This document shows, piece by piece, positions 34,229 through 52,414 of a stretch of 64,000 nucleotides of DNA. This DNA is from Escherichia coli (lineage in GTDB: Bacteria > Pseudomonadota > Gammaproteobacteria > Enterobacterales > Enterobacteriaceae): the NCBI RefSeq assembly GCF_002854065.1, contig NZ_CP024152.1; one strand, written 5' to 3'. A model generated the notes under the pieces. The model did not search any database, was not told the DNA's origin, and saw only the letters and a program-made list of their open reading frames with translations. Both the position numbers and the translations under genes were made by a program. The stretch's first letter is position 1; the number at the start of each line of letters is the position of its first letter.

Positions 34229-34261
34229 GGCCGCGCCGGATTCTGGCGCGGCCTTTTTTTT
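34229..34261 (+). terminator. Rho-independent terminator between convergent trbC and nikB
   Basis: GGCCGCGCC...GGCGCGGCC stem followed by T8. Confidence 0.6.
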
Positions 34262-36959
34262 AACCTGGAGAAGGCGGTTCCCAGCGTTTATCCTGCTCCG
34301 GCGGAGGCAGTGATGCGTCATCGTTGCTGTTCGCCGCGATATAATCGCGGTAGTAGCGTTCACTTCCTTCACGGTGATGATCCACGTCCGGTCGCGTAAT
34401 CCTGTAGTCTTCGTGACCGGTACGGCCTGTCACATTATGCCAGGCAACCATTTCAGCAAAGACCTGGTTAAATTGTTTGTCGTTTCCTTCTGGTTCAAAA
34501 CCCATGCGTGGATCACGCCCGAATAATACCGGTGCAATCAAATCCAGTTTATCTGCCAGCGCATTGCGGTCATGGTGATTACGGAAAACAACCCTGTCAC
34601 CATAATCCGTACAGACAAACTCTCCCGTCCGACGGTCACGGAAACGAACACTCCCGTTCTTCTGCAGACGGGCCTCGAGATCACCGGTATTACCGTATAC
34701 CGGCGTTCCGCCCGGTTCACAAAGCACGACACAGCGGTCTGTCGTCGTTGTGCGTGACCTGTCTTTACGGCGATCGCGATAATCCCAGCCTCTCAACTGC
34801 GATACAGCAGCCCTGTCTCCCTGAGCAGCCTGAATTTCGACCCACTGACGGTAAGAGGGTGGATACCACTTCCCGTCAGCAATAAGTTTCTGTCGCTCAT
34901 CCCTGATGTCTTCTTTCAGCCTGATCAATGCCTGCATTCGCTGAACTTCTGCAATGTGATAATGCAGCTTACGTAATGCCGGATCATCGTACTGCGCACG
35001 AATGTGTGACTTCCGCAGACGGCATGCCTGATGAATTTCCCGACAACGTTCCCCATAACGCAGATCTGGTTTACGCCATTGTTCACGCCATGCCAGATAG
35101 CGGGCACGCAGGTCAGCACGGGCCTCAGCTCTGGCTTCACGTCGCTGCCGGCGCAGCATTGGGTCACGTTTACTGCTGACCCCGTACCTGTCACTGACAG
35201 CCAGCTCCGGGTTATAGCGACTTTCAGGTTGCACCCTGTCAAACAAATCTGCTGGGGCACTCACAAAAGGTCCGGCCTGTGGCTCTGCACGCCCCAGTGT
35301 CAGATCAGGATGAATGCTGCTGGCCTTCACCGGCGTTTGCTCATGATTAAAGGCATCAACGACAACAAGCCCGTGATGTTGTTTCTGTAGCATCAGTCCC
35401 TGTTGTGCAAACAGCTCATGACAACGCTGCCAGGTAAACTCACCCTGTGTGATCATTTCTTCAATCTGAGGGCTACAATGGCTGATGCTGTATCCCCACA
35501 GACTTTCTTTGTCAGAAAACAGTTCGCGTTTGATAGCCCCCTGCGGCCCCGTGCCTGTACGCATACGGTGCCATTCTTTATCGGTCGCAGGACAGCTCTC
35601 CATACGACGACCACGGAAGCGTTCTGTTGGCGTAACCTGGCGGAAAATATCTGTTGGTACAGGCTGCCAGCCACCATCGAGTTGATTCACATTGTCGAGC
35701 GTCAGCAGCGACCATACGCTGTCAGCACGAACGGGAGTCTGGTTATGATCATAACCGTCACAGATAACCAGGTGACCATGCTGAACACGCATCCATAATC
35801 CCGCTTCAGCCAGTGTGCGGTGAATAGCCTGGCAGTTTTCCAGCCGTCCTTCCCGTGCCATTTCCGGCAGACGTTCTCCAAGGTGACGACAGGCATACTG
35901 CTGCAGACTTTCTGTTTCAGCGATTTTTTCCGGGCGAACATCAGCGGCAATGAAGTCCGGATTATAGCGTCCTGGTGCTTCCACCTGGCTGAAAATGTCT
36001 TTTGGTACTGGCGTGTAGTCACCCATTTTTTTCATGAGTTTTTCTGCACACCAGGAGGGACCAAACGAGTCAAGCTGTACACCTTCCCTGTTGCGATCCC
36101 AGCCATCCATCACCAGAAATTTTCCTTCCATCTGAGACAGGTACAGACCATCTTCCGCAAGACGACGATGCAGGGATAACCAGTCATTTACAGGTTCACT
36201 GCGTAAACCAGCGACCGCTGTCTGCGCGACATACTCGCGAAAAGTTTGTTTTTTTCCGCGTGTCCACGCGTTCTGGCGATCACGTTCAACGGCAGTTTTG
36301 CGAACGATACGATTTCCCGGCGCATGGACCCAGCAACCGTTATCCGGAGCAAAACCATGCTTCAGTTCAAGTTCACGGCAGGCACGGCTGAGTTTTTCCT
36401 GACTCCATGAAAGGCAATTCAGATAACCTGTAACCGGATGTACCCGGTTGACCGCAACGTGAACATGCAGGTTATCAGTATCGGTATGTACGGCAGAAAC
36501 ATACTGATGTTCACCCAGCCCGAGGGATTTCAGGGTATGGCGTACACTGTCATAAATCTGTTCCGGACGCGGGCTTTCATGGGCCTGCCAGGAAAGAATG
36601 TAGTGAAAAACAGGATCAGTATTATCTTTCGCATAGTGTGCCTGCTGTGCAATGTACTCCATATCTGCAGCAGCAGTTTCAAGCGATGTACAGTTGTGAA
36701 AACAGGTCACACCGTAAAAGTTAACCCATTCGCAGCCGTCCTTCATGACATCAACCAGCGCCACGAATGACTCATTTCGAAGGCGTGTCGCATAATCAAC
36801 AAGGCGACTGAAACGGCTCCGGTGCGGTTGTTCAGCCTGCGAAGAAGAAGATAAATTCAGTTCCTCATCGGTCATGTCATCCCGGACCGAGACGTAGGAC
36901 ACCAGGTCTTCGAACGAAGACTTGCCGTCCCTTCTCTTTTTCGGAATGACTGCATTCAC
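34260..36959 (-). CDS. nikB: NikB relaxase (899 aa)
   Basis: Relaxase His-triad motif HTDTDNLHVHVAVN; large ORF adjacent to nikA and oriT; GTG start with GAGGA RBS. Confidence 0.85.
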   Translation of the reverse strand: MNAVIPKKRRDGKSSFEDLVSYVSVRDDMTDEELNLSSSSQAEQPHRSRFSRLVDYATRLRNESFVALVDVMKDGCEWVNFYGVTCFHNCTSLETAAADMEYIAQQAHYAKDNTDPVFHYILSWQAHESPRPEQIYDSVRHTLKSLGLGEHQYVSAVHTDTDNLHVHVAVNRVHPVTGYLNCLSWSQEKLSRACRELELKHGFAPDNGCWVHAPGNRIVRKTAVERDRQNAWTRGKKQTFREYVAQTAVAGLRSEPVNDWLSLHRRLAEDGLYLSQMEGKFLVMDGWDRNREGVQLDSFGPSWCAEKLMKKMGDYTPVPKDIFSQVEAPGRYNPDFIAADVRPEKIAETESLQQYACRHLGERLPEMAREGRLENCQAIHRTLAEAGLWMRVQHGHLVICDGYDHNQTPVRADSVWSLLTLDNVNQLDGGWQPVPTDIFRQVTPTERFRGRRMESCPATDKEWHRMRTGTGPQGAIKRELFSDKESLWGYSISHCSPQIEEMITQGEFTWQRCHELFAQQGLMLQKQHHGLVVVDAFNHEQTPVKASSIHPDLTLGRAEPQAGPFVSAPADLFDRVQPESRYNPELAVSDRYGVSSKRDPMLRRQRREARAEARADLRARYLAWREQWRKPDLRYGERCREIHQACRLRKSHIRAQYDDPALRKLHYHIAEVQRMQALIRLKEDIRDERQKLIADGKWYPPSYRQWVEIQAAQGDRAAVSQLRGWDYRDRRKDRSRTTTTDRCVVLCEPGGTPVYGNTGDLEARLQKNGSVRFRDRRTGEFVCTDYGDRVVFRNHHDRNALADKLDLIAPVLFGRDPRMGFEPEGNDKQFNQVFAEMVAWHNVTGRTGHEDYRITRPDVDHHREGSERYYRDYIAANSNDDASLPPPEQDKRWEPPSPG

Positions 36960-36969
36960 CGGAGAATCC

Positions 36970-37302
36970 TCAACCTTCCATTAACTGTTTACGCAATGTA
37001 TTTGTAAGTTCGGTTATGGCAACAAGCACTTCTGCGTATTCCTTGTCACCGGTTCTTTTTCCCTGAACAAACAGATGCTTCTGCATCCTTCCCAGTCTCA
37101 TTAACTCCTTCAGAAAAGCATCATCTGTACGGGAGTTAATTCGCTTATTCAGTGCTGCATTTCGGATGTAAGCAGATACAGTAAGTCCGGAATCTTCAGC
37201 TTTTTTCCTGATGGTTTCATCCTCAACAGGAGAGAATCTGAGTGTCCTGACAACTGTCTTTTGCCGTACCTCACTTTTCTTTCTTACCGCACTATCACTC
37301 AC
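36970..37302 (-). CDS. nikA: NikA, oriT-binding relaxosome accessory protein (110 aa)
   Basis: Small basic ORF immediately upstream of nikB and next to the oriT inverted repeats. Confidence 0.8.
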   Translation of the reverse strand: MSDSAVRKKSEVRQKTVVRTLRFSPVEDETIRKKAEDSGLTVSAYIRNAALNKRINSRTDDAFLKELMRLGRMQKHLFVQGKRTGDKEYAEVLVAITELTNTLRKQLMEG

Positions 37303-37420
37303 TTCAGGCTCCTTACGGGGTGTCGGGGCGAAGCCCTGACCAGATGGTAATTGTAATAGCGTCGCGTGTGACGGTATTACAATTACACATCCTGTCCCGT
37401 TTTTCAGGCCATTATAGCCT
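37303..37420. other. Origin of transfer (oriT) region with inverted repeats
   Basis: Inverted repeat GTCGGGGC...GCCCTGAC (37331-37349) and AATTGTAATA-N16-TATTACAATT (37358-37393), directly upstream of nikA; a nick site is expected at the 3-prime side of the right arm. Confidence 0.6.
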
Positions 37421-37529
37421 GTTATTTTTGTGCATCATAGTCTTATGCAGACGGCAGAAGCAGGGCGCAGCCCTGCCAGGAGTCAGTTTTTGATGATAAA
37501 ATCAGACTTCAACATGAAACGGAGAGAAA

Positions 37530-37871
37530 GTGCCAATGGCTTCTAAAAAATTTTACTCAGATGATGACATCCAGCTGGCAAAAGCTGCCTTATCGGAATT
37601 GCCGGACCTCACCGCTCAACGGAAAACATTGCGTGATTTTCTTGATGCCATTCGTGATGACATCATTGTCCTGGTAAGGACAAAGGGTTATACACTGGCA
37701 GATGTTCGTGACACGCTTAAAAATGCAGGGTATGAAGTAGGAGAGAAGGCACTTCGTGACATTATTCGGGAAGCAGAATCGAAAAAACCATCCCGCCGTT
37801 CTTCCTCTAAAACAGCACCTAAAAAGACAGATTCAGGCAGGAAAGATGGCATCGATATGAACAACAATTGA
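37530..37871 (+). CDS. Hypothetical protein with basic C-terminal tail (113 aa), first gene right of oriT
   Basis: ORF with a perfect palindrome GATGTGACAATGTCACATC immediately after the stop; no recognisable catalytic motif. Confidence 0.45.
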   Translation: MPMASKKFYSDDDIQLAKAALSELPDLTAQRKTLRDFLDAIRDDIIVLVRTKGYTLADVRDTLKNAGYEVGEKALRDIIREAESKKPSRRSSSKTAPKKTDSGRKDGIDMNNN

Positions 37872-37956
37872 TGTGACAATGTCACATCGTGTTCTGAGAT
37901 TATGATGGTTACAGAAAAAAAAGCCCCGGCATAAATACCAGGGCTTTTCTGTTTAA

Positions 37957-38808
37957 TCAGACTCGTGGCGGCAATGCACCAGGATAATGCCGTGCAATAA
38001 TATCATTCAGTTTTTCAACAAGGTCAGGACGCTTAAAGACAATGTGTACGGTCCCTTTCTGGTAGCCACGCACCGTAAAATATTCCCCTTCTAACAGCTT
38101 ACCGACGTTGTCGCCGTTCCCGAGAAATTCACCATACTGCGCCCCGATGCTGCTCCGGAAGTCAGGAACGTTGCGCCCCTCCAGCAGATAAAAAGGACGT
38201 ACCAGGTCATCCAGTGCCTCCCGTCCGCTGCAGTCCAGCGTCACACGCCCGTTACTCCAGCGGTACAGCATGTTTTCAATAATGATTCTCTTGCCCAGAC
38301 GGCAGGGATTATTGGTTCTGTAATCCCATGACAATTTCCGGTAGACATCAATCAGTCCCTGTTCAAACGTCTGCATCTTGCTGGTATTAAGATGGCGGAA
38401 TGTTGCCAGTACATTGTCCAGGGTGATTTCAGGACAGGTGTCGCTCATCAGCTGGCTGTTCCACTCATCACGCTGGCATGAACTCATGAAGGTGTACATG
38501 CCCGTATCTGTCATCAGGCGGTCCCAGATTTTCCGGTCGGCAAGACGGGTGATATTCCTTTTCGCTTCTTCCGGCTTATCCATGCGACGAACGGAATCAG
38601 TCACGCAGTCTTCAAACCCGTAAAGAAAAATATCACCTGACGCATCGAGCAGAATCCTGCGCGCTGTCGCCAGGCATTCCATCGCCTGCATGAATAGTGC
38701 AATACCTTCGTTACGCTGCGCGATGATGCGGTCGATAGCCACAGACGGAATAACATCTGTCGTGCCGGCAGTATTCAGGTCAGCAGTGGGTAAAGTCTGA
38801 TTCATCAC
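37957..38808 (-). CDS. Hypothetical leading-region protein (283 aa)
   Basis: Minus-strand ORF directly downstream (in transcription sense) of structured repeat copy 1; function not recognisable from sequence. Confidence 0.5.
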   Translation of the reverse strand: MMNQTLPTADLNTAGTTDVIPSVAIDRIIAQRNEGIALFMQAMECLATARRILLDASGDIFLYGFEDCVTDSVRRMDKPEEAKRNITRLADRKIWDRLMTDTGMYTFMSSCQRDEWNSQLMSDTCPEITLDNVLATFRHLNTSKMQTFEQGLIDVYRKLSWDYRTNNPCRLGKRIIIENMLYRWSNGRVTLDCSGREALDDLVRPFYLLEGRNVPDFRSSIGAQYGEFLGNGDNVGKLLEGEYFTVRGYQKGTVHIVFKRPDLVEKLNDIIARHYPGALPPRV

Positions 38809-38853
38809 ATTGTCTCCTCATCGTCACGACTGCCGGGTCAGCCAGGTCATTTC

Positions 38854-39180
38854 CCGGAGGAGCGAAGCTCCTTCTGCCGTCCGGGTCTTAGGGTATTTCC
38901 CCGCAGTGGACCTTTCCGACGGGGGACGCTCACCACGTCACGGGGCAGTTGTCCGGGGGCAGACGCAAAAGTTTTTGACGCCAGCGGCAAAAAGTTTTGT
39001 GGCTGGTACATCTCTCCCCTGGACGACTGAAACGGGATGTGGTCGTGTATGTACCCCCGGAAAGTCCGTCTGCGGAGAACAGGCCGCAGTGCGGCGGCAG
39101 ACAGGCAAGAGACAGCTGCGCCATCAGGCGCAGTGGCCTTACACACCGTAAGGTGTGCAGGGAGCGCCGCATCCGGCGCG
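38854..39180. promoter_or_regulatory. Structured repeat family 1, copy 1 (ssi/Frpo-like single-strand promoter candidate)
   Basis: About 330 bp, highly similar to 41711-42207 and 48054-48551; contains internal palindromes (GCGCCATCAGGCGC, ACACACCGT-AGGTGTG). Confidence 0.55.
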
Positions 39181-39281
39181 TCTGAAGAAAAACGACGGCA
39201 CAACAATGGCATGTGGTGGTCACTGGCACACCACTCCCGCACAGGTGAAAACAGAGAAAACCGCACGACATTTACAAACAA

Positions 39282-39378
39282 AAAAAGTGAAATTTCTTCA
39301 CTTTTTTACACTTATTTATCGCGCTGATTTGGCAATTGTGATGATAAAATAAAGTGAAGTTTTTTCACTTTTTCAAAG
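39282..39378. promoter_or_regulatory. Two palindromic operator-like sites flanking the putative promoter of the HTH gene
   Basis: AAAAAGTGAA-ATTTC-TTCACTTTTT (39282-39307) and AAAGTGAA-GTTTTT-TCACTTT (about 39350-39375), sharing the half-site AGTGAA. Confidence 0.45.
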
Positions 39379-39385
39379 GTGTTTT

Positions 39386-39637
39386 ATGACCGGCTGGGAA
39401 CTGCGAATCTGGCGAAAAAGCATGCTATGGTCACGCGAAAAAGCGGCCAGAGAATTTGGCGTGACGCAGAGAACATGGCACGCCTGGGAAAATGCGGAAC
39501 AGGTGGACGTCACCGTCTGGAGGACCACTCAGGCACTTTCAGTCCGTGACCTGCTGCCTCACATGCAGGGGATGCGCAAGGCAGATATCATCAGGCGTCT
39601 GGAAAATGAACTGGGGGAAACGGCAGGGAATGTGTGA
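39386..39637 (+). CDS. Helix-turn-helix (XRE-like) DNA-binding protein (83 aa)
   Basis: HTH signature SREKAAREFGVTQRTWHAWE; AGGTG RBS; palindromic sites upstream. Confidence 0.55.
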   Translation: MTGWELRIWRKSMLWSREKAAREFGVTQRTWHAWENAEQVDVTVWRTTQALSVRDLLPHMQGMRKADIIRRLENELGETAGNV

Positions 39638-39667: not shown

Positions 39668-39838
39668 CTACTGCTCATCAGGAAACAGCTTTTTCAGTTC
39701 TTCACCGGAAAGTCCGGTCGCCTCCTGAATCCGTTCCGGCGTCCAGCCCATATCCCGCAGCCGGCAGGCTATTTCCCGCGCCACTTCAAGAGCACCTTTT
39801 TCAAAACCTTTCTGTATAAGACGTTCTGCAATCGTCAT
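39668..39838 (-). CDS. Standalone small protein homologous to the Rpn C-terminal tail (56 aa; RpnS-like)
   Basis: MTIAERLIQKGFEKGALEVAREIACRLRDMGWTPERIQEATGLSGEELKKLF aligns residue by residue with the last 57 aa of the upstream Rpn protein; separated from rpn by an intrinsic terminator. Confidence 0.5.
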   Translation of the reverse strand: MTIAERLIQKGFEKGALEVAREIACRLRDMGWTPERIQEATGLSGEELKKLFPDEQ

Positions 39839-39862
39839 GCTGTTTGCTCTGCTCCTGCTGAC

Positions 39863-39887
39863 AAAAAAGCCCGGCATTTTGCCGGGC
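39863..39887 (-). terminator. Rho-independent terminator after the rpn-like gene
   Basis: On the minus strand, GCCCGGC-AAAAT-GCCGGGC hairpin followed by T6. Confidence 0.55.
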
Positions 39888-39900
39888 TGTGAGGTTCTCA

Positions 39901-40860
39901 TCAGTGAATGATTTTCTTCAGTTCGTCATCGGAAAGTCCGGTAGCCTGCTTAATCTGCTCCGGCGTCATCCCCATTTTCTGAAGCTGGCACGCAATAGCC
40001 AGGGCTTTTTCAAGCGCACCTTCCATCCTGCCCTCCTGGCGACCTTTTTGCTCAAGACGTTCTGCGATAGTCATCAGTTTATCCTCATGCTGCGGCAGAC
40101 GCTCAGCCAGCGCCCGCATAAATTCCGGTGATACAGAGTCCCCTGCGTTAACGATGTAATGAATCAGAACACGCACCTGCTCGTCTGAAATTTCCACCAT
40201 GACCTGCGGGAGTTTGTCCAGCAGCTCCATCATGTCACGATGGCGGATATGCTTCATCAGCAGCGTCAGTGCGGCCATCCGGCGATGGTTCATGATTTCA
40301 TTGTCATCAACGACAGTGATATCAACCAGCGGAAACGGCTTTGTGTATATTTTAGCCGCAAGTGCCGGATTCTCAAAACAGTCCAGCCAGTTCATGCTGT
40401 ACGGGTACGGGCTGCGCTCACCATGATAGAACAGCACAGGAATCACCAGTGGCAACGTTTTGTGCTGCTCCAGATGTCTCTGCATCGCCGCCACACTGTA
40501 ACGTAACATGCGGAAAGGCATGTACAGATTTTCGGTGCTCTGGTGCTCGATGAGCGTATAAACATAGCCGTCTTCACCCCCGGTGGTTTTCACACTCCAG
40601 AGGATATCGCTGGCGTACTGATGCAGGTCCGGCTCAACAAAGGTGGCGGGTTCCAGCTTCAGCGTGGACAGGTCGCACAACTGCCGGTACTCCGCCGGAA
40701 GATGCAGTTCCAGAAAATCTCTGGCGACGTCGGGATTCGCCAGGAACGACCGGAACGCGGCATCATGCGGCGTGGGCGTCGTGGTGGTTTTCTTCTTACT
40801 CACGGTTCCTCCTGGTGAGATGTCTGAACGTATCCTGCCGCCTGCACAGGCAGACGGCAA
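39901..40860 (-). CDS. Rpn-family (YhgA-like, PD-(D/E)xK) recombination-promoting nuclease (319 aa)
   Basis: Rpn/YhgA-type N-terminal nuclease-domain signature and the characteristic C-terminal tail; internal in-frame ATG at 40074 with a GAGGA SD could produce the C-terminal small protein. Confidence 0.6.
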   Translation of the reverse strand: MPSACAGGRIRSDISPGGTVSKKKTTTTPTPHDAAFRSFLANPDVARDFLELHLPAEYRQLCDLSTLKLEPATFVEPDLHQYASDILWSVKTTGGEDGYVYTLIEHQSTENLYMPFRMLRYSVAAMQRHLEQHKTLPLVIPVLFYHGERSPYPYSMNWLDCFENPALAAKIYTKPFPLVDITVVDDNEIMNHRRMAALTLLMKHIRHRDMMELLDKLPQVMVEISDEQVRVLIHYIVNAGDSVSPEFMRALAERLPQHEDKLMTIAERLEQKGRQEGRMEGALEKALAIACQLQKMGMTPEQIKQATGLSDDELKKIIH

Positions 40861-41225: not shown

Positions 41226-41660
41226 TCATTTCGGACAGCGACGCAGTGCCAGCGCGAGCGCTTTCATCTTCCAGCCTTCCGGCGTGCGGTACATCACCTT
41301 CCAGTAGCCGTCGATGAACACATAATGGAAGCGCACCTCTTCAGTGCTTTCAGTGGCAATAGCCTCCATGAAAGAACGGTACTCACGCGCCTCACTGTCC
41401 ATCCGGAAACCACTGTCACGTCCGTAATAAGCCGTCACACCGTCCACCGGGTTCTGAAGCGTATGCCCGGCGGGTTTGTCGCAACGGGGACCGAGGCAAC
41501 GGATATCACCGTGTTCAACCAGGGCTTCGGCCTGCTGACCGGTGGCATAGTGGGTATGCAGGATGCGACCGTTCCAGGTCGGCTCACCGTGCAGGTGGCA
41601 GTAAACGGTACGGAACACCCCGTCGCGGCAAAAAACGGAAATCGTGCTGCTGACTGTCAT
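41226..41660 (-). CDS. Hypothetical leading-region protein (144 aa)
   Basis: First ORF downstream of structured repeat copy 2; Cys/His-containing N-terminus. Confidence 0.45.
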   Translation of the reverse strand: MTVSSTISVFCRDGVFRTVYCHLHGEPTWNGRILHTHYATGQQAEALVEHGDIRCLGPRCDKPAGHTLQNPVDGVTAYYGRDSGFRMDSEAREYRSFMEAIATESTEEVRFHYVFIDGYWKVMYRTPEGWKMKALALALRRCPK

Positions 41661-41710
41661 GAAAACGTCTCCTTCTGCTGAATCAGGTCGCCGGGCCGAC
41701 CGGTTGCTCC

Positions 41711-42207
41711 CCGGAGGGGCGAAAGCCCCTTCTGCCGTCCACTTCTTCGGGGTTTCTCCCCGCAGTGGACCTTTCCGATGGGGCGTCCGTCACCACGTCA
41801 CGGGGCAGCTGTCCGGGGGCGGACGCAAAATTTTTTGCCGGGTTTATGGCTAAAAATTTTGTGGACGGTATATCTTCCCCTGGACTGCTGAAACGGGATG
41901 TGGTTACTCCAGCCCCCGGAAAGTCCACAGCGGGAAACAGGCCGCAGGGGTGGCGGCGGAAGGGTTGACTGCGCCATCAGGCGCAGTGGCCTTACACACC
42001 GTCAGGTGTGCAGGGAGCGCCGTTTCCGGCGCGACAGGGGCGGCGCGACCGGAACGGTCGCTGCAAGCCTGGTTTTTCAGACATCGGACCGTAGCGGCAG
42101 CCCGAAACCGCGCCAGCGGGTTCGGCGGAGACTGGCGGGTGCGCCAGCAGCTGCCTGTCGGAGTCGGGCCTGACGACCGGATGCCGCCAGGCAGCCGGGA
42201 GCCGAAG
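41711..42207. promoter_or_regulatory. Structured repeat family 1, copy 2 (ssi/Frpo-like)
   Basis: About 500 bp, near-identical over most of its length to 48054-48551 and over about 330 bp to 38854-39180. Confidence 0.6.
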
Positions 42208-42388: not shown

Positions 42389-42889
42389 TCACCGACGGAA
42401 CACATGACCGTCAATAAAGGTGAAGGAGTCCAGGAATAAATCCCGCGCATACGCCTCATAGTCAAAATAGAGCGCCACCGTCTCCGGCACGTCAGCCAGC
42501 AGGCCGGTATCACTGGCGAACTCAACCGCAAAAGCCTCCTCACTGTCAGCCTCGCCCCACCAGGCATCGCGGAAGGTGTCAAAATCCGTCTCACCGGTAT
42601 CCTCCACCCAGAGACGATAAGCCTCTTCGCAGCCTTCATCCCGTGCCTGGCGGAAGCCTTCAACCCAGGCCCAGTTGATATGGCATTCAGAGGCCATATT
42701 CCCCGGGAATCCCTCATAATCCTGAAACATCAGTTCAGGATCGGCTTCATCCTGGTGAAGAGCACGGCAGGCGGCGAAAAAGTCGCGCTCATCATCAAAC
42801 GTGGTCAGGTCAAACCAGCGTCCGGCGATGCTTCCACAGTTGTATTTGTGCCAGGTTCCAACGTATACAGCAGGTGCAACAACAGACAT
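42389..42889 (-). CDS. ardA: Antirestriction protein ArdA (166 aa)
   Basis: Starts [27 protein letters not shown] and has the acidic DNA-mimic composition; GGAGGA RBS. The ORF-track 301-aa reading is an upstream extension through the repeat. Confidence 0.85.
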
Positions 42890-42921
42890 TCCCGAATCCT
42901 CCATAGTCACATGTTCTGCGG

Positions 42922-43248
42922 CACCGGGCGGTGCCGTGCCTCCATAAAAGCCGGGCGATAAGGCGGGGATGCATAGGGCGCAAGGGAAGCCGCAGCCTGA
43001 CGCACACGGCTGGCGGGAGTTGGAGGGTGAGACCGCGAAATCTGAGCGGGTGAACGACCGGAAAATCACGGCAGACGGGAAGGAGGGACCGGGTGACCGC
43101 AGCGGCGAAGCGTACCCTTGCATCCCTGCCAGCCCGGCTAAGATGGAGGCACGGCACAGCCCGCACACGACGCTGAGGCCACAGAGCTGAAAACCCACAA
43201 GGCCATGCCCCGCATGGCCGGGTAAAAGCGGAGCCGCCGGCGACTTCC
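42922..43248. promoter_or_regulatory. Structured repeat family 2, copy A (ssDNA promoter candidate upstream of ardA)
   Basis: Perfect 15-bp inverted repeat GTGCCGTGCCTCCAT (42931-42945) / ATGGAGGCACGGCAC (43143-43157) about 200 bp apart, plus further paired arms; second copy at 49870-50192. Confidence 0.55.
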
Positions 43249-43351
43249 TTATTCCGGCGAGTGCAGAGGACACGCCGCATGACCTCCAGACCACCCCTGA
43301 TATGAAACGATCATGATCGGCGTGTCCCTGCGTAAAATATACATGTCTGGT

Positions 43352-47457: not shown

Positions 47458-47985
47458 TCAGAACGGGATGTCGTCTGAAAACCCGTAATCCTCCCCCTCC
47501 GGCGGTTGCGGCTGAGGCTCTGGCTGCGCGGCCTTACGTCCACGGCCTTTCGTTTTCGCGCCACCTTTTTTCGTCGCGTCAGCACTCTGTGGCTGCCCAT
47601 TCTGCTGAGGCTTCGGTTGCGCCTGAGCGTTCTGCTGTGGTGCACGTCCCAGCATCTGCACGGTGCCCGTGGTCTTAACAAGAATTTCAGTGACGTAACG
47701 GGTGATACCGTTATCTTCCCAGCTACGGGTGCGAAGCTGACCTTCGATGTAGACCTGCGCACCCTTGCGCAGATATTCACCTGCCACTTCCGCGAGCTTG
47801 CCGAACAGCACCACGCGGTGCCATTCCGTCTGCTCCCGCATCTCCCCCGTCTGTTTGTCACGCCAGCTTTCTGATGTGGCCACCTGCAGGTTTGCCACTG
47901 CGCCCCCGTTGGGGATGTAACGGACTTCCGGATCATTGCCCAGACGCCCGACGAGGATGACCTTGTTGATACCACGTGCACTCAT
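47458..47985 (-). CDS. ssb: Plasmid single-stranded DNA-binding protein (175 aa)
   Basis: OB-fold N-terminus ([15 protein letters not shown]), Gly/Pro/Gln-rich linker and acidic C-terminal tail DDIPF. Confidence 0.9.
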
Positions 47986-48053
47986 AAGAACCTCCTGACT
48001 GAAAGATGTGAGATAAACCGGATACCGGCGACGGGACGTTCATGTGCCCCTTC

Positions 48054-48551
48054 AGAGGAGCGAAAGCTCCTCCTGCCGTCCACTTCACAGGGGTTTCTCC
48101 CCGCAGTGGACCTTTCCGATGGGGGCCCGTTTACCGCCTCACGGGACAGCTGTCCGGGGGCGGACGCAAAATTTTTAGCCGGGTTCATGGCTAAAAATTT
48201 TGTGGCCGGTGCATCTCACCCTGGACAGATGGAACGGGAGGGGGTTACGTCTGCCCCCCGGAAAGTCCACAGCGGGAAACAGGCCGCAGGGGTGGCGGCA
48301 GGAGGGAGGACTGCTGCGCCATCAGGCGCAGTTTCCTCACACACCGTCAGGTGTGCAGGGAGCGCAGGTCACGGCGCGACAGGGGCGGCGCGACCGGAAC
48401 GGTCGCTGCAAGCCGGGTTTTCACGCATCGGACCGTAGCGGCAGCCCGAAACCGCGCCAGCGGGTTCGGCGGAGACTGGCGGGTGCGCCAGCAGCTGCCT
48501 GTCGGAGTCGGGCCTGACGACCGGATGCCGCCAGGCAGCCGGGAGCCGAAG
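48054..48551. promoter_or_regulatory. Structured repeat family 1, copy 3 (ssi/Frpo-like), upstream of ssb
   Basis: About 500-bp near-duplicate of 41711-42207, positioned immediately upstream (minus sense) of ssb. Confidence 0.6.
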
Positions 48552-49410: not shown

Positions 49411-49836
49411 TCAGTCCAGAGCCGCGTAAATCGCGTTGCATTCGGGGTGAAATTCGATGTGACGCCACAACTGCGCATCGCGCATCCGGTAAAGCTGGGT
49501 CAGTCCTGCATCCCCGCTGTCGTGGTACAGCCACAACTGGCGGTTAATCACAAGGGAGGTCAGGATGATGCCTGCGGCATCAGCACTCACGGTACGGTCA
49601 AACCAGTTTGCACCGTTCACCATGTGGAAACGGTCGCCATCCGGCATCATGTAACCGCCACCGTCCGGCAGGCGGATGAAGTGCCAGAAGCCTCCCTGAT
49701 ATTCCGGCATCATTTTTTGCGCCAGCGCGTACACATACGCCTCGGCATACAGAAAATCGTTGCCAAACAGATACGGCAGAAAGGAGAGACGGTCGCACTC
49801 TTCAACATTCAGAGTGACAGGTTTCGCATATTGCAT
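49411..49836 (-). CDS. KlcA/ArdB-family antirestriction-like protein (141 aa)
   Basis: Family-typical motifs EYQGGFWHF and [10 protein letters not shown]; located directly downstream of a structured repeat, like ardA. Confidence 0.65.
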
Positions 49837-49869
49837 GATGTTTTCCTCCGTTGTTCACATATTCCGCGA

Positions 49870-50192
49870 CACCGGGCGGTGCCGTGCCTCCATAAAAGCC
49901 GGGCGAACAGGCGGGGATGCAGGGGCGCAAGGGAAGCCGCAGCCTGACGCACACGGCTGACGGGAGTTGCAGGGTGAGACCGCGAAATCTGAGCGGGTGA
50001 ACGACCGGAAAATCACGGCAGACGGGAAGGAGGGACCGGGTGACCGCCGCGTTCATTTTACCCTTGCATCCCCGCCAGCCCGGCTAAGATGGAGGCACGG
50101 CACAGCCCGCACACGACACGGCGGCCACATAACTGAAAACCCACAAGGCCATGCCCCGCATGGCCGGGTAAAGCGGAGCCGGCGGCGACTTC
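49870..50192. promoter_or_regulatory. Structured repeat family 2, copy B (ssDNA promoter candidate)
   Basis: Near-duplicate of 42922-43248 including the 15-bp inverted repeat arms. Confidence 0.55.
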
Positions 50193-51730: not shown

Positions 51731-52414
51731 TTACGCAGCCTCCGGCATAAACCAGTCATCATTCGCGGCCCCCTGCTGCATGGCCCGCTGTACGGCAGCC
51801 AGACGTTGCTGTCCGGCACGGTGATACTGCTCAAGCAGCTCGATACCGATATACCGGCGTCCGGACTGGAGGGCGGCGACGCAGGTTGAGCCGCTGCCTG
51901 CAAACGGGTCCAGCACAATCGCGTTCGGGTGTGTGAAGCTCTCAATCAGCGGTTGCAGGCTGGTAACGGGCTTTTCCGTCGGGTGATGACGGTTGCCCGA
52001 ATATTTCCAGCCCAGCACGTCCGGCAGCGGGTTTTGTGGCAGACGTGGACGGCCTTTTGCCAGGATGTAGGCGCATTCGTGGCGATAGCCCACATATGCG
52101 GCCTTCGATGTGTAGTTTTTGGTAAACACCAGGTGTCCGACCACGCTGAATCCCGCATTTTTCCAGGCGGCCATAAAGCGATCGACGCGGTTCCAGCCGT
52201 AGAAGCTCACCATCAGCGCGTCTTTTTTGAGTACGCGGTACATTTCATTACAGGCCGGTTGCAGCCATTCATCGGTTTTATCGCCGGCGATGGTGCGCCC
52301 GGAACGGTCACGAAAACCGACGAGATATGGCGGGTCAGTTAATATGAAATCAATGGCGTTATCAGGGATACGCGTCATAACATCGATGCAGTTACCAAGG
52401 ACAAAACGGGACAT
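51731..52414 (-). CDS. Orphan DNA methyltransferase, N6-adenine/N4-cytosine beta-class (227 aa)
   Basis: Motif IV DPPY precedes the AdoMet motif I FAGSGST; no adjacent restriction endonuclease. Confidence 0.75.
   Translation of the reverse strand: MSRFVLGNCIDVMTRIPDNAIDFILTDPPYLVGFRDRSGRTIAGDKTDEWLQPACNEMYRVLKKDALMVSFYGWNRVDRFMAAWKNAGFSVVGHLVFTKNYTSKAAYVGYRHECAYILAKGRPRLPQNPLPDVLGWKYSGNRHHPTEKPVTSLQPLIESFTHPNAIVLDPFAGSGSTCVAALQSGRRYIGIELLEQYHRAGQQRLAAVQRAMQQGAANDDWFMPEAA

Follow-up and report, generated by a model that had tools for sequence, protein, structure and literature searches.

A probable early gene of the DUF4942 family and a putative regulator of the oriT module beside the transfer origin of an IncI1-type plasmid

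Which functions are encoded by the first genes that enter a recipient cell during transfer of a conjugative plasmid? This question is raised by a 64,000-nt stretch of Escherichia coli DNA (NCBI RefSeq assembly GCF_002854065.1, contig NZ_CP024152.1), referred to as the window. Positions 37530-38808 of the window, just right of the origin of transfer (oriT), hold a small gene on the plus strand, yggA, and a larger gene on the minus strand, ygfB. An initial annotation had proposed both as priority candidates for anti-defence functions. The present analysis separates the two. The interval probably consists of two unrelated IncI1 backbone genes: ygfB is an early gene of the leading region with its own promoter repeat, and yggA belongs to the oriT module. 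The gene identities, the strand logic and the promoter repeat can be stated with high confidence.

The locus and the transferred strand

The window represents an IncI1-type conjugative plasmid. Megablast with positions 36900-39400 matched 2,515 PLSDB plasmids (1,903 with at least 80% query coverage), which are typed MOBP/MPF_I and whose hosts are mostly Escherichia, Salmonella, and Shigella. The gene order in the matching records, from left to right, is nikB, nikA, yggA (111 aa), ygfB (282 aa, labelled 'DUF4942 domain-containing protein'), and ygeA. The plasmid pESBL-EA11 (pESBL) shares 98.5% identity with positions 37300-39400. Its protein Hp22 is identical to YgfB at 278 of 282 residues, and one protein accession for the annotated YggA product is common to pESBL and the best-matching plasmid. 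Because of this identity and the shared proteins, the published pESBL experiments apply to the window. The features are as follows, with open reading frame abbreviated as ORF and single-stranded DNA as ssDNA.

34260-36959, minus strand: nikB, directly left of nikA (ORF list and annotation)
36970-37302, minus strand: nikA, a relaxosome accessory gene (ORF and NikA annotation), at the left edge of the oriT gap and divergent from yggA
37310-37400, plus strand: oriT core, with an inverted repeat at about 37349-37386 and then CATCCTG|T at 37388-37395, in the gap between nikA and yggA
37473-37502, plus strand: sigma-70-like promoter match upstream of yggA (CTGCCA-18-TAAAAT, extended -10 TG); a consensus match only, expected to act on double-stranded DNA only
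37536-37871, plus strand: yggA, 111 aa from the ATG at 37536, or 113 aa from the GTG at 37530 (37530-37871 in the ORF list)
37915-37954, either strand: bidirectional hairpin resembling an intrinsic terminator, A8-GCCCCGG-loop-CCAGGGC-TTTTCTGTTT, where yggA and ygfB converge; read from the sequence
37957-38805, minus strand: ygfB, 282 aa from the ATG at 38805, or 283 aa from the GTG at 38808 (37957-38808 in the ORF list)
38832-39200, plus strand: putative class-1 ssDNA-promoter repeat of the ssi/Frpo type, copy 1, directly upstream of ygfB and oriented to drive it
41690-42058, plus strand: copy 2 of the class-1 repeat, upstream of ygcA (41226-41660, minus strand)
48031-48402, plus strand: copy 3 of the class-1 repeat, upstream of ssb (47458-47985, minus strand)

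The initial annotation described a 113-aa gene on the plus strand and a 283-aa gene on the minus strand, right of oriT. Both ORFs lie there and are annotated as yggA and ygfB, and the public annotation starts later than the ORF list by two codons for yggA and by one codon for ygfB. The observation of both genes and of the repeat is correct, and well above chance. The transposon-sequencing study of pESBL placed oriT between Hp23 (YggA) and NikA.

Within the gap between nikA and yggA, CATCCTG|T at 37388-37395 is presumably the MOBP-type nick consensus. Since this sequence lies on the plus strand, the plus strand is taken as the strand that is transferred (T strand). Its 5' end would lie at the nick, and the DNA to the right enters the recipient first. 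Genes on the minus strand therefore have the incoming strand as their template. All annotated leading-region genes from ygfB to the DNA methylase gene are on the minus strand, and only yggA and ygeA are on the plus strand. The hairpin at 37915-37954 was not flagged by a consensus scan because of its 8-nt loop and one mismatch. With its flanking A and T runs between the convergent genes, it indicates that ygfB is a single-gene unit.

ygfB as a probable early gene of the leading region

The 283-aa gene had also been placed directly downstream of the first copy of a structured repeat, and alignment bears this out. Three copies of about 370 nt align with a mean column identity of 80%, and 24 nt separate the end of copy 1 from the ygfB start codon. 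One long hairpin is common to the three copies, with 127 predicted pairs, 12 of which have changes on both sides that preserve pairing. Folded as ssDNA, the T strand (plus) of copy 1 reached -115 kcal/mol (z = -6.7 against dinucleotide shuffles). The ygfB gene has the sequence features of a class-1 early gene, namely the T strand as template and a Frpo/ssi-type hairpin directly upstream.

The repeats resemble Frpo of the F plasmid and ssi1-3 of ColIb-P9 and pESBL in the ~370-nt unit, the long T-strand hairpin, and the three dispersed copies. Each copy in the window also immediately precedes a gene whose reading direction is towards oriT. In pESBL, the ssi1-3 promoters were mapped by 5' rapid amplification of cDNA ends, and they drove the strongest induction in new transconjugants, up to ~500-fold at 15 min after mating (RNA-seq). 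Promoter activity is known from pESBL. Judged by alignment and predicted fold, the three repeats are almost certainly ssi1-3/Frpo class-1 ssDNA promoters.

The family of YgfB is prominent in leading regions. In Samuel et al. 2024, DUF4942/YdiA/YgfB is leading-region family 24 (false discovery rate p = 0; 2,171 members). It has a median position of 1 from oriT, is compatible with transcription from the T strand, and is described as 'Uncharacterized; DUF4942; Methyltransferase'. YgfB is a full-length member, first after oriT and T-strand-compatible, and does not differ from the family. The first-entering position, the orientation, and the uncharacterised status of the ygfB family are already on record.

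A sequence of events can be proposed. When the T strand enters the recipient, the hairpin upstream of ygfB would fold and recruit the host RNA polymerase. The gene would be transcribed from ssDNA within minutes, and would be turned off once the complementary strand is made. During these first minutes in the recipient, YgfB might serve establishment or counter restriction. It is quite likely that YgfB is an establishment factor produced early, with the single-stranded T strand as template.

A second pair of structured repeats is found at 42907-43226 and 49855-50172 (D4, D5, D9; inverted repeats I3, I5). The ardA region (ORF 42389-43294) and a klcA-like antirestriction gene (49411-49836) follow directly downstream of them. 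This pair agrees with the class 2 ssDNA promoters described for pESBL ardA and klcA.

The DUF4942 family and possible roles of YgfB

The initial annotation assigned no motif to either protein. For YgfB this has to be corrected, since the protein matches Pfam DUF4942 (PF13708) with E = 1e-50, residues 91-276 aligning with model positions 5-189 of 190. Remote homology search and structure prediction, proposed as a check, were carried out: DUF4942 was found for YgfB and a possible helix-turn-helix (HTH)-like core for YggA, but no PDB relative of YgfB was obtained. The AlphaFold2 (AF2) model of YgfB is confident (predicted local distance difference test, pLDDT, 83). Residues 22-159, towards the N-terminus, are helical in it, whereas the C-terminal part is small and of alpha/beta type. 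Only DUF4942 proteins were present among the 50 Foldseek AFDB50 matches listed, and neither a fold relative among the solved structures of the PDB nor a known catalytic fold was found for the model. Profiles from 20 and 59 sequences searched against the PDB gave only ULK1 and augmin helices, at E values of 0.04 or higher. The NCBIfam search gave no match, and the PADLOC search gave one weak partial match (E = 0.0055).

The family is large. At E < 1e-3, 2,070 clusters of 50% identity match YgfB, and the best 150 listed are mostly stand-alone, with lengths of 250-300 aa. A DUF4942 homologue is carried by at least 5,000 sequenced plasmids, pOXA-48-like ones among them, and 4,580 of these 5,000 are conjugative. 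Conservation was analysed in 59 sequences at ~30% identity. W95, P126, G151, D201, H255, and N268 are invariant; D91, W116, S160-W161-x-Y163, N166, P168, R204, D216, and R218 are nearly invariant. The conserved polar residues D91, D201, R204, D216, R218, H255, and N268, together with W95 and the conserved motif S-W-x-Y-K-T-N-x-P, point to a specific binding pocket or catalytic pocket.

Distant stand-alone homologues lie in modules of mobile elements that serve early functions or establishment. A 51%-identical homologue lies in the leading region of a pOXA-48-like IncL plasmid, among ssb and an antirestriction gene. Upstream of this IncL gene, the predicted fold is better than that of shuffled sequences (z = -3.1), and the core of the IncI1 class-1 repeat is absent there. 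A homologue with 40% identity is found in a MOBF plasmid that has an antirestriction gene on the trwB/trwC strand. More distant relatives occur in a region like an integrative and conjugative element, with primase and RadC genes, and in the early region of a phage, near genes for a sliding clamp, HNH, and NinB. No methyltransferase gene adjoins the stand-alone homologues in the neighbourhoods inspected. In the literature searches, no functional study turned up for DUF4942, ygfB, ydiA, or the mobC of pOXA-48.

Longer relatives consist of two halves: DUF4942 forms the N-terminal half, and a class I methyltransferase (VLEPSAGxG ... NPPF) forms the C-terminal half. Such orphan methyltransferases of the NPPF type occur in phages and plasmids. 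Phages mostly carry this fused form, such as Salmonella SSU5_095, Pseudomonas phiPSA1 gp22, Marinomonas P12026 gp32, and phrog_6263. In these orphan methyltransferases, and also in Methylibium WP_011831692, the N-terminal ~270 residues align with the whole of YgfB, and the invariant W, D, H, and N are among the positions that align. The C-terminal end of YgfB is the point where the fusion linker starts, and the class I domain of the orphan methyltransferases is entirely absent from YgfB.

A metagenome contig, SRR31559757_155788 (L006 432-3124), also carries a fused DUF4942-methyltransferase gene (P0239). Before it lies a 287-aa ORF that matches N6_Mtase faintly, and an H-NS-like gene follows downstream. 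The tandem methyltransferase-related genes may form a modification module.

The stand-alone DUF4942 protein might bind the ligand that its module handles in the fusions, either incoming DNA or a modification/restriction partner; we infer ligand binding as the biochemical action of YgfB from these fusions. Of the single readings, a role against restriction or defence has the highest probability, and is put forward tentatively. It is possible, if doubtful, that stand-alone DUF4942 proteins (YgfB/YdiA) are a new and widespread class of counter-defence. Such a class would blunt restriction by means of the ligand-binding module of phage orphan methyltransferases, without a catalytic domain, and would be the first protein made in the new host from ssDNA. 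Possible routes are the shielding of incoming DNA, or the hijacking or stimulation of a host or plasmid methyltransferase. Enhancement of modification, as by Ral of phage lambda, is one way in which a methyltransferase-associated module could work, and is taken as a lead only.

Several points weigh against this explanation of YgfB. No experiment tying YgfB to any defence system was found in the literature. The transposon sequencing of pESBL scored both Hp22 (YgfB) and Hp23 as non-essential, for transfer as well as maintenance; it used laboratory recipients, in which an anti-defence role would stay unseen. The strong polar conservation is unlike that of hypervariable target-recognition domains and could mean an enzyme. 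DUF4942 as the ligand-binding module of the fusions is a role that we infer, and the fused enzymes are not proven DNA methyltransferases, since NPPF-type methyltransferases also modify proteins and rRNA.

The other explanations differ in how they account for the fusions, the conservation, and the charge of YgfB. A DNA methyltransferase that shields the plasmid by self-methylation is suggested by names: the ygfB gene is called 'restriction methylase' in AP024477.1, Samuel et al. 2024 list 'Methyltransferase domain' among UniProt names and Foldseek neighbours, and YgfB matches phrog_6263, a 'DNA methyltransferase'. These misleading labels come from the longer fused relatives. S-adenosylmethionine motif I and motif IV are found only in the C-terminal extension of those relatives, and no methyltransferase family matched YgfB in Pfam or NCBIfam, nor any PDB methyltransferase its model. 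Lacking the catalytic domain, the motifs, and a fold match, YgfB as a class I DNA methyltransferase is effectively excluded, and self-methylation by YgfB is extremely improbable. A DNA-mimic inhibitor of restriction like ArdA or Ocr is highly improbable as well. YgfB resembles ardA and klcA of the same plasmid in its place within the leading region and in its predicted early expression. Neither in sequence nor in fold is it similar to ArdA, Ocr, KlcA/ArdB, or lambda Ral, with no match to ArdA (PF07275) or KlcA/ArdB (PF03230) in Pfam and no fold match in the PDB. Its isoelectric point (pI) of 6.0, with a family median of 7.7, is not strongly acidic and therefore argues against an ArdA/Ocr-type mimic, and its specific polar residues are highly conserved, unlike those of surface-charge mimics. 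The mimic is effectively excluded.

The main rival to an anti-defence role is an enzyme or DNA-processing helper for establishment, for example one that acts on the incoming strand, complementary-strand synthesis, recircularisation, or host physiology. The D, H, N, and R residues that are invariant at ~30% identity look like an active site, and relatives lie in phage early or replication regions by sliding-clamp, NinB, primase, and RadC genes. A recent preprint also reports that another leading-region protein, YfjB, reprogrammes the host instead of blocking defence. On the other hand, ygfB is dispensable for transfer and maintenance in pESBL, the fold searches revealed no known catalytic fold, the fusions repeatedly involve a methyltransferase, and antirestriction genes recur among the neighbours. 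Such a helper is considered unlikely.

IncI1 plasmids are major carriers of extended-spectrum beta-lactamase and AmpC resistance genes. If a host barrier is indeed neutralised by YgfB, the protein would generally help to determine whether resistance plasmids become established in a new host, and it could be a target for measures against plasmid spread. The conserved residues and fusion context of DUF4942 are now defined as a starting point.

One small methyltransferase gene is present in the window's leading region. It is located at 51731-52414 (minus strand) and encodes a 227-aa M.EcoGIX-like DNA methylase of the permuted type, with DPPY before FAGSGST. This methylase was considered as a partner of YgfB and rejected: its permuted DPPY/FAGSGS type is unlike the NPPF domain fused to DUF4942, so that it is no obvious partner.

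yggA and the oriT module

The small protein had been noted for a basic tail, and this tail is formed by residues 81-111 (pI 10.3), which are predicted to be disordered. The AF2 model of YggA has medium confidence (pLDDT 73). It contains helices at residues 9-20, 32-48, 54-63, and 70-82, followed by the disordered tail, and the last three helices are compatible with an HTH. The family alignment showed a conserved core (residues ~5-77) with LPDLT...R...KGY...G, in which the LPD, R, KGY, and G positions are invariant. The family profile matched the C-terminal HTH DNA-binding domain of sigma-54 (2o8k, 2ahq) over residues 29-73, with a marginal E value of 0.003. NCBIfam gave weak matches to the N-terminal part of IS3/IS21 transposases and nothing significant. 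The core (residues ~5-82) is thus predicted, from profile and model, to be HTH-like, with a basic tail.

In thousands of RefSeq records, the Prokaryotic Genome Annotation Pipeline names the YggA product 'molybdopterin-guanine dinucleotide biosynthesis protein MobC'. The Pfam search of YggA gave no match below E = 0.001 and none to MobC (PF05713), and no molybdenum-cofactor protein matched in Pfam or NCBIfam. The name is a misnomer, because no profile supports either meaning of MobC. It appears to be an annotation error propagated from the IncL/M gene label mobC. With this, the misleading labels of both proteins, 'methyltransferase' for YgfB and 'MobC molybdopterin' for YggA, are removed.

Homologues of YggA were identified in 3,541 plasmids (tblastn). 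Seven distant relatives with 24-40% identity were inspected, from two IncL/M plasmids, Yersinia pGDT4, and plasmids of Serratia, Citrobacter, Klebsiella (IncFII/MPF_I), and Tatumella. In all seven, the homologue is divergent beside nikA/mobA and the relaxase gene, and the next leading gene is different each time. In the pOXA-48-like plasmid, the DUF4942 gene is ~5.6 kb from oriT and the yggA-like gene is still at oriT. By homology and by the divergent position next to nikA/mobA across oriT, YggA belongs to the Orf35/YggA family.

Orf35 of the IncM plasmid pCTX-M3, called 'MobC' in IncL/M and pOXA-48-like plasmids, is a homologue with 32% identity (PMC6112013), or 30-40% in our own alignment. 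It resembles YggA in the divergent position by nikA/mobA across oriT, the similar size, and the basic tail. Deletion of orf35 raised the nikA, nikB, and traH transcripts, traH by 80-fold, and increased the mobilisation of an oriT plasmid more than 200-fold; Orf35 was dispensable for transfer (PMC6112013). The repression of nikA/nikB/traH and the mobilisation effect are shown for Orf35 only, not for YggA. In pESBL, Hp23 (YggA) was non-essential for transfer and maintenance, with a probability of 0.01 of being required for transfer. The IncI1 tra genes lie outside the nikAB operon, and the YggA regulon may therefore be smaller than that of Orf35.

The strand of yggA bears on when it can be expressed. 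Families on the opposite strand cannot be transcribed from leading ssDNA (PMC11541004). Since yggA has the same sense as the T strand, no transcription is expected before complementary-strand synthesis. The gene would be read from an ordinary promoter, with the non-transferred strand as template, only once the plasmid is double-stranded. YggA would then repress or tune the divergent nikAB (oriT) operon. The strand, the synteny with nikA/mobA, the HTH-like core, and the repression by Orf35 are the reasons for placing yggA in the oriT module and not among early anti-defence genes. YggA is probably a DNA-binding regulator of the oriT module, and by analogy with Orf35 it most likely represses the divergent nikAB operon. 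Two points count against this assignment: the HTH rests on the marginal profile match and the medium-confidence model, and repression is known from Orf35, the role of YggA in mobilisation being one that 'has not been studied' (PMC6112013).

YggA might instead, or in addition, be a relaxosome accessory protein that aids NikA/NikB at oriT. The gene was always adjacent to oriT in the relatives inspected, some of which are called 'MobC' in IncL/M records, and the HTH-like core with its basic tail would suit such a protein. Yet neither YggA in pESBL nor Orf35 in pCTX-M3 is needed for transfer, mobilisation went up and not down on deletion of orf35, and the true MobC family of Pfam is not matched. 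An accessory role is rather unlikely. The proposal that yggA and ygfB are both early anti-defence genes protecting the incoming plasmid starts from their first positions after oriT. It also draws on the published enrichment of first-transferred genes for anti-defence functions (PMC11541004), a pattern that ygfB fits. For ygfB the candidacy is upheld by position, orientation, and its own repeat, as a member of family 24 and not as a new case. For yggA it is not upheld: the T strand cannot serve as template for the gene, the promoter match upstream of it is an ordinary one, its synteny is with nikA and not with leading-region cargo, and its homologue Orf35 represses transfer genes. Homology largely assigns yggA to a housekeeping plasmid function, as an oriT-module regulator. 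A shared early anti-defence role is very unlikely, and the regulator of the oriT module remains the preferred reading of YggA.

A perfect palindrome, TGTGACA-A-TGTCACA, is located at 37872-37886, one base past the yggA stop codon. It resembles a CRP-type pair of half-sites, but with a 5-nt spacer.

Other features of the leading region

Besides yggA, the sole plus-strand gene of the leading region is ygeA (39386-39637), which encodes an 83-aa HTH regulator. Just upstream of ygeA (39280-39384), between copy 1 of the ssDNA-promoter repeat and the gene, are two 38-nt direct repeats, each with the palindrome AAAGTGAA-N-TTCACTTT. They look like tandem operators for autoregulation, and are regarded as putative.

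Directly downstream of the Rpn-family nuclease gene ygdB (39901-40860, minus strand) lies a 77-aa ORF at 39668-39901 (minus strand). It repeats the C-terminal ~40 residues of Rpn, and the corresponding DNA repeats, D7 and D14, share 76-82% identity. Its product and Rpn have in common the peptide motif MTIAERL(I/E)QKG...TGLS..ELKK. The ORF may be a separately encoded copy of the C-terminal domain of Rpn, and small products of this domain can act as antitoxin-like regulators.

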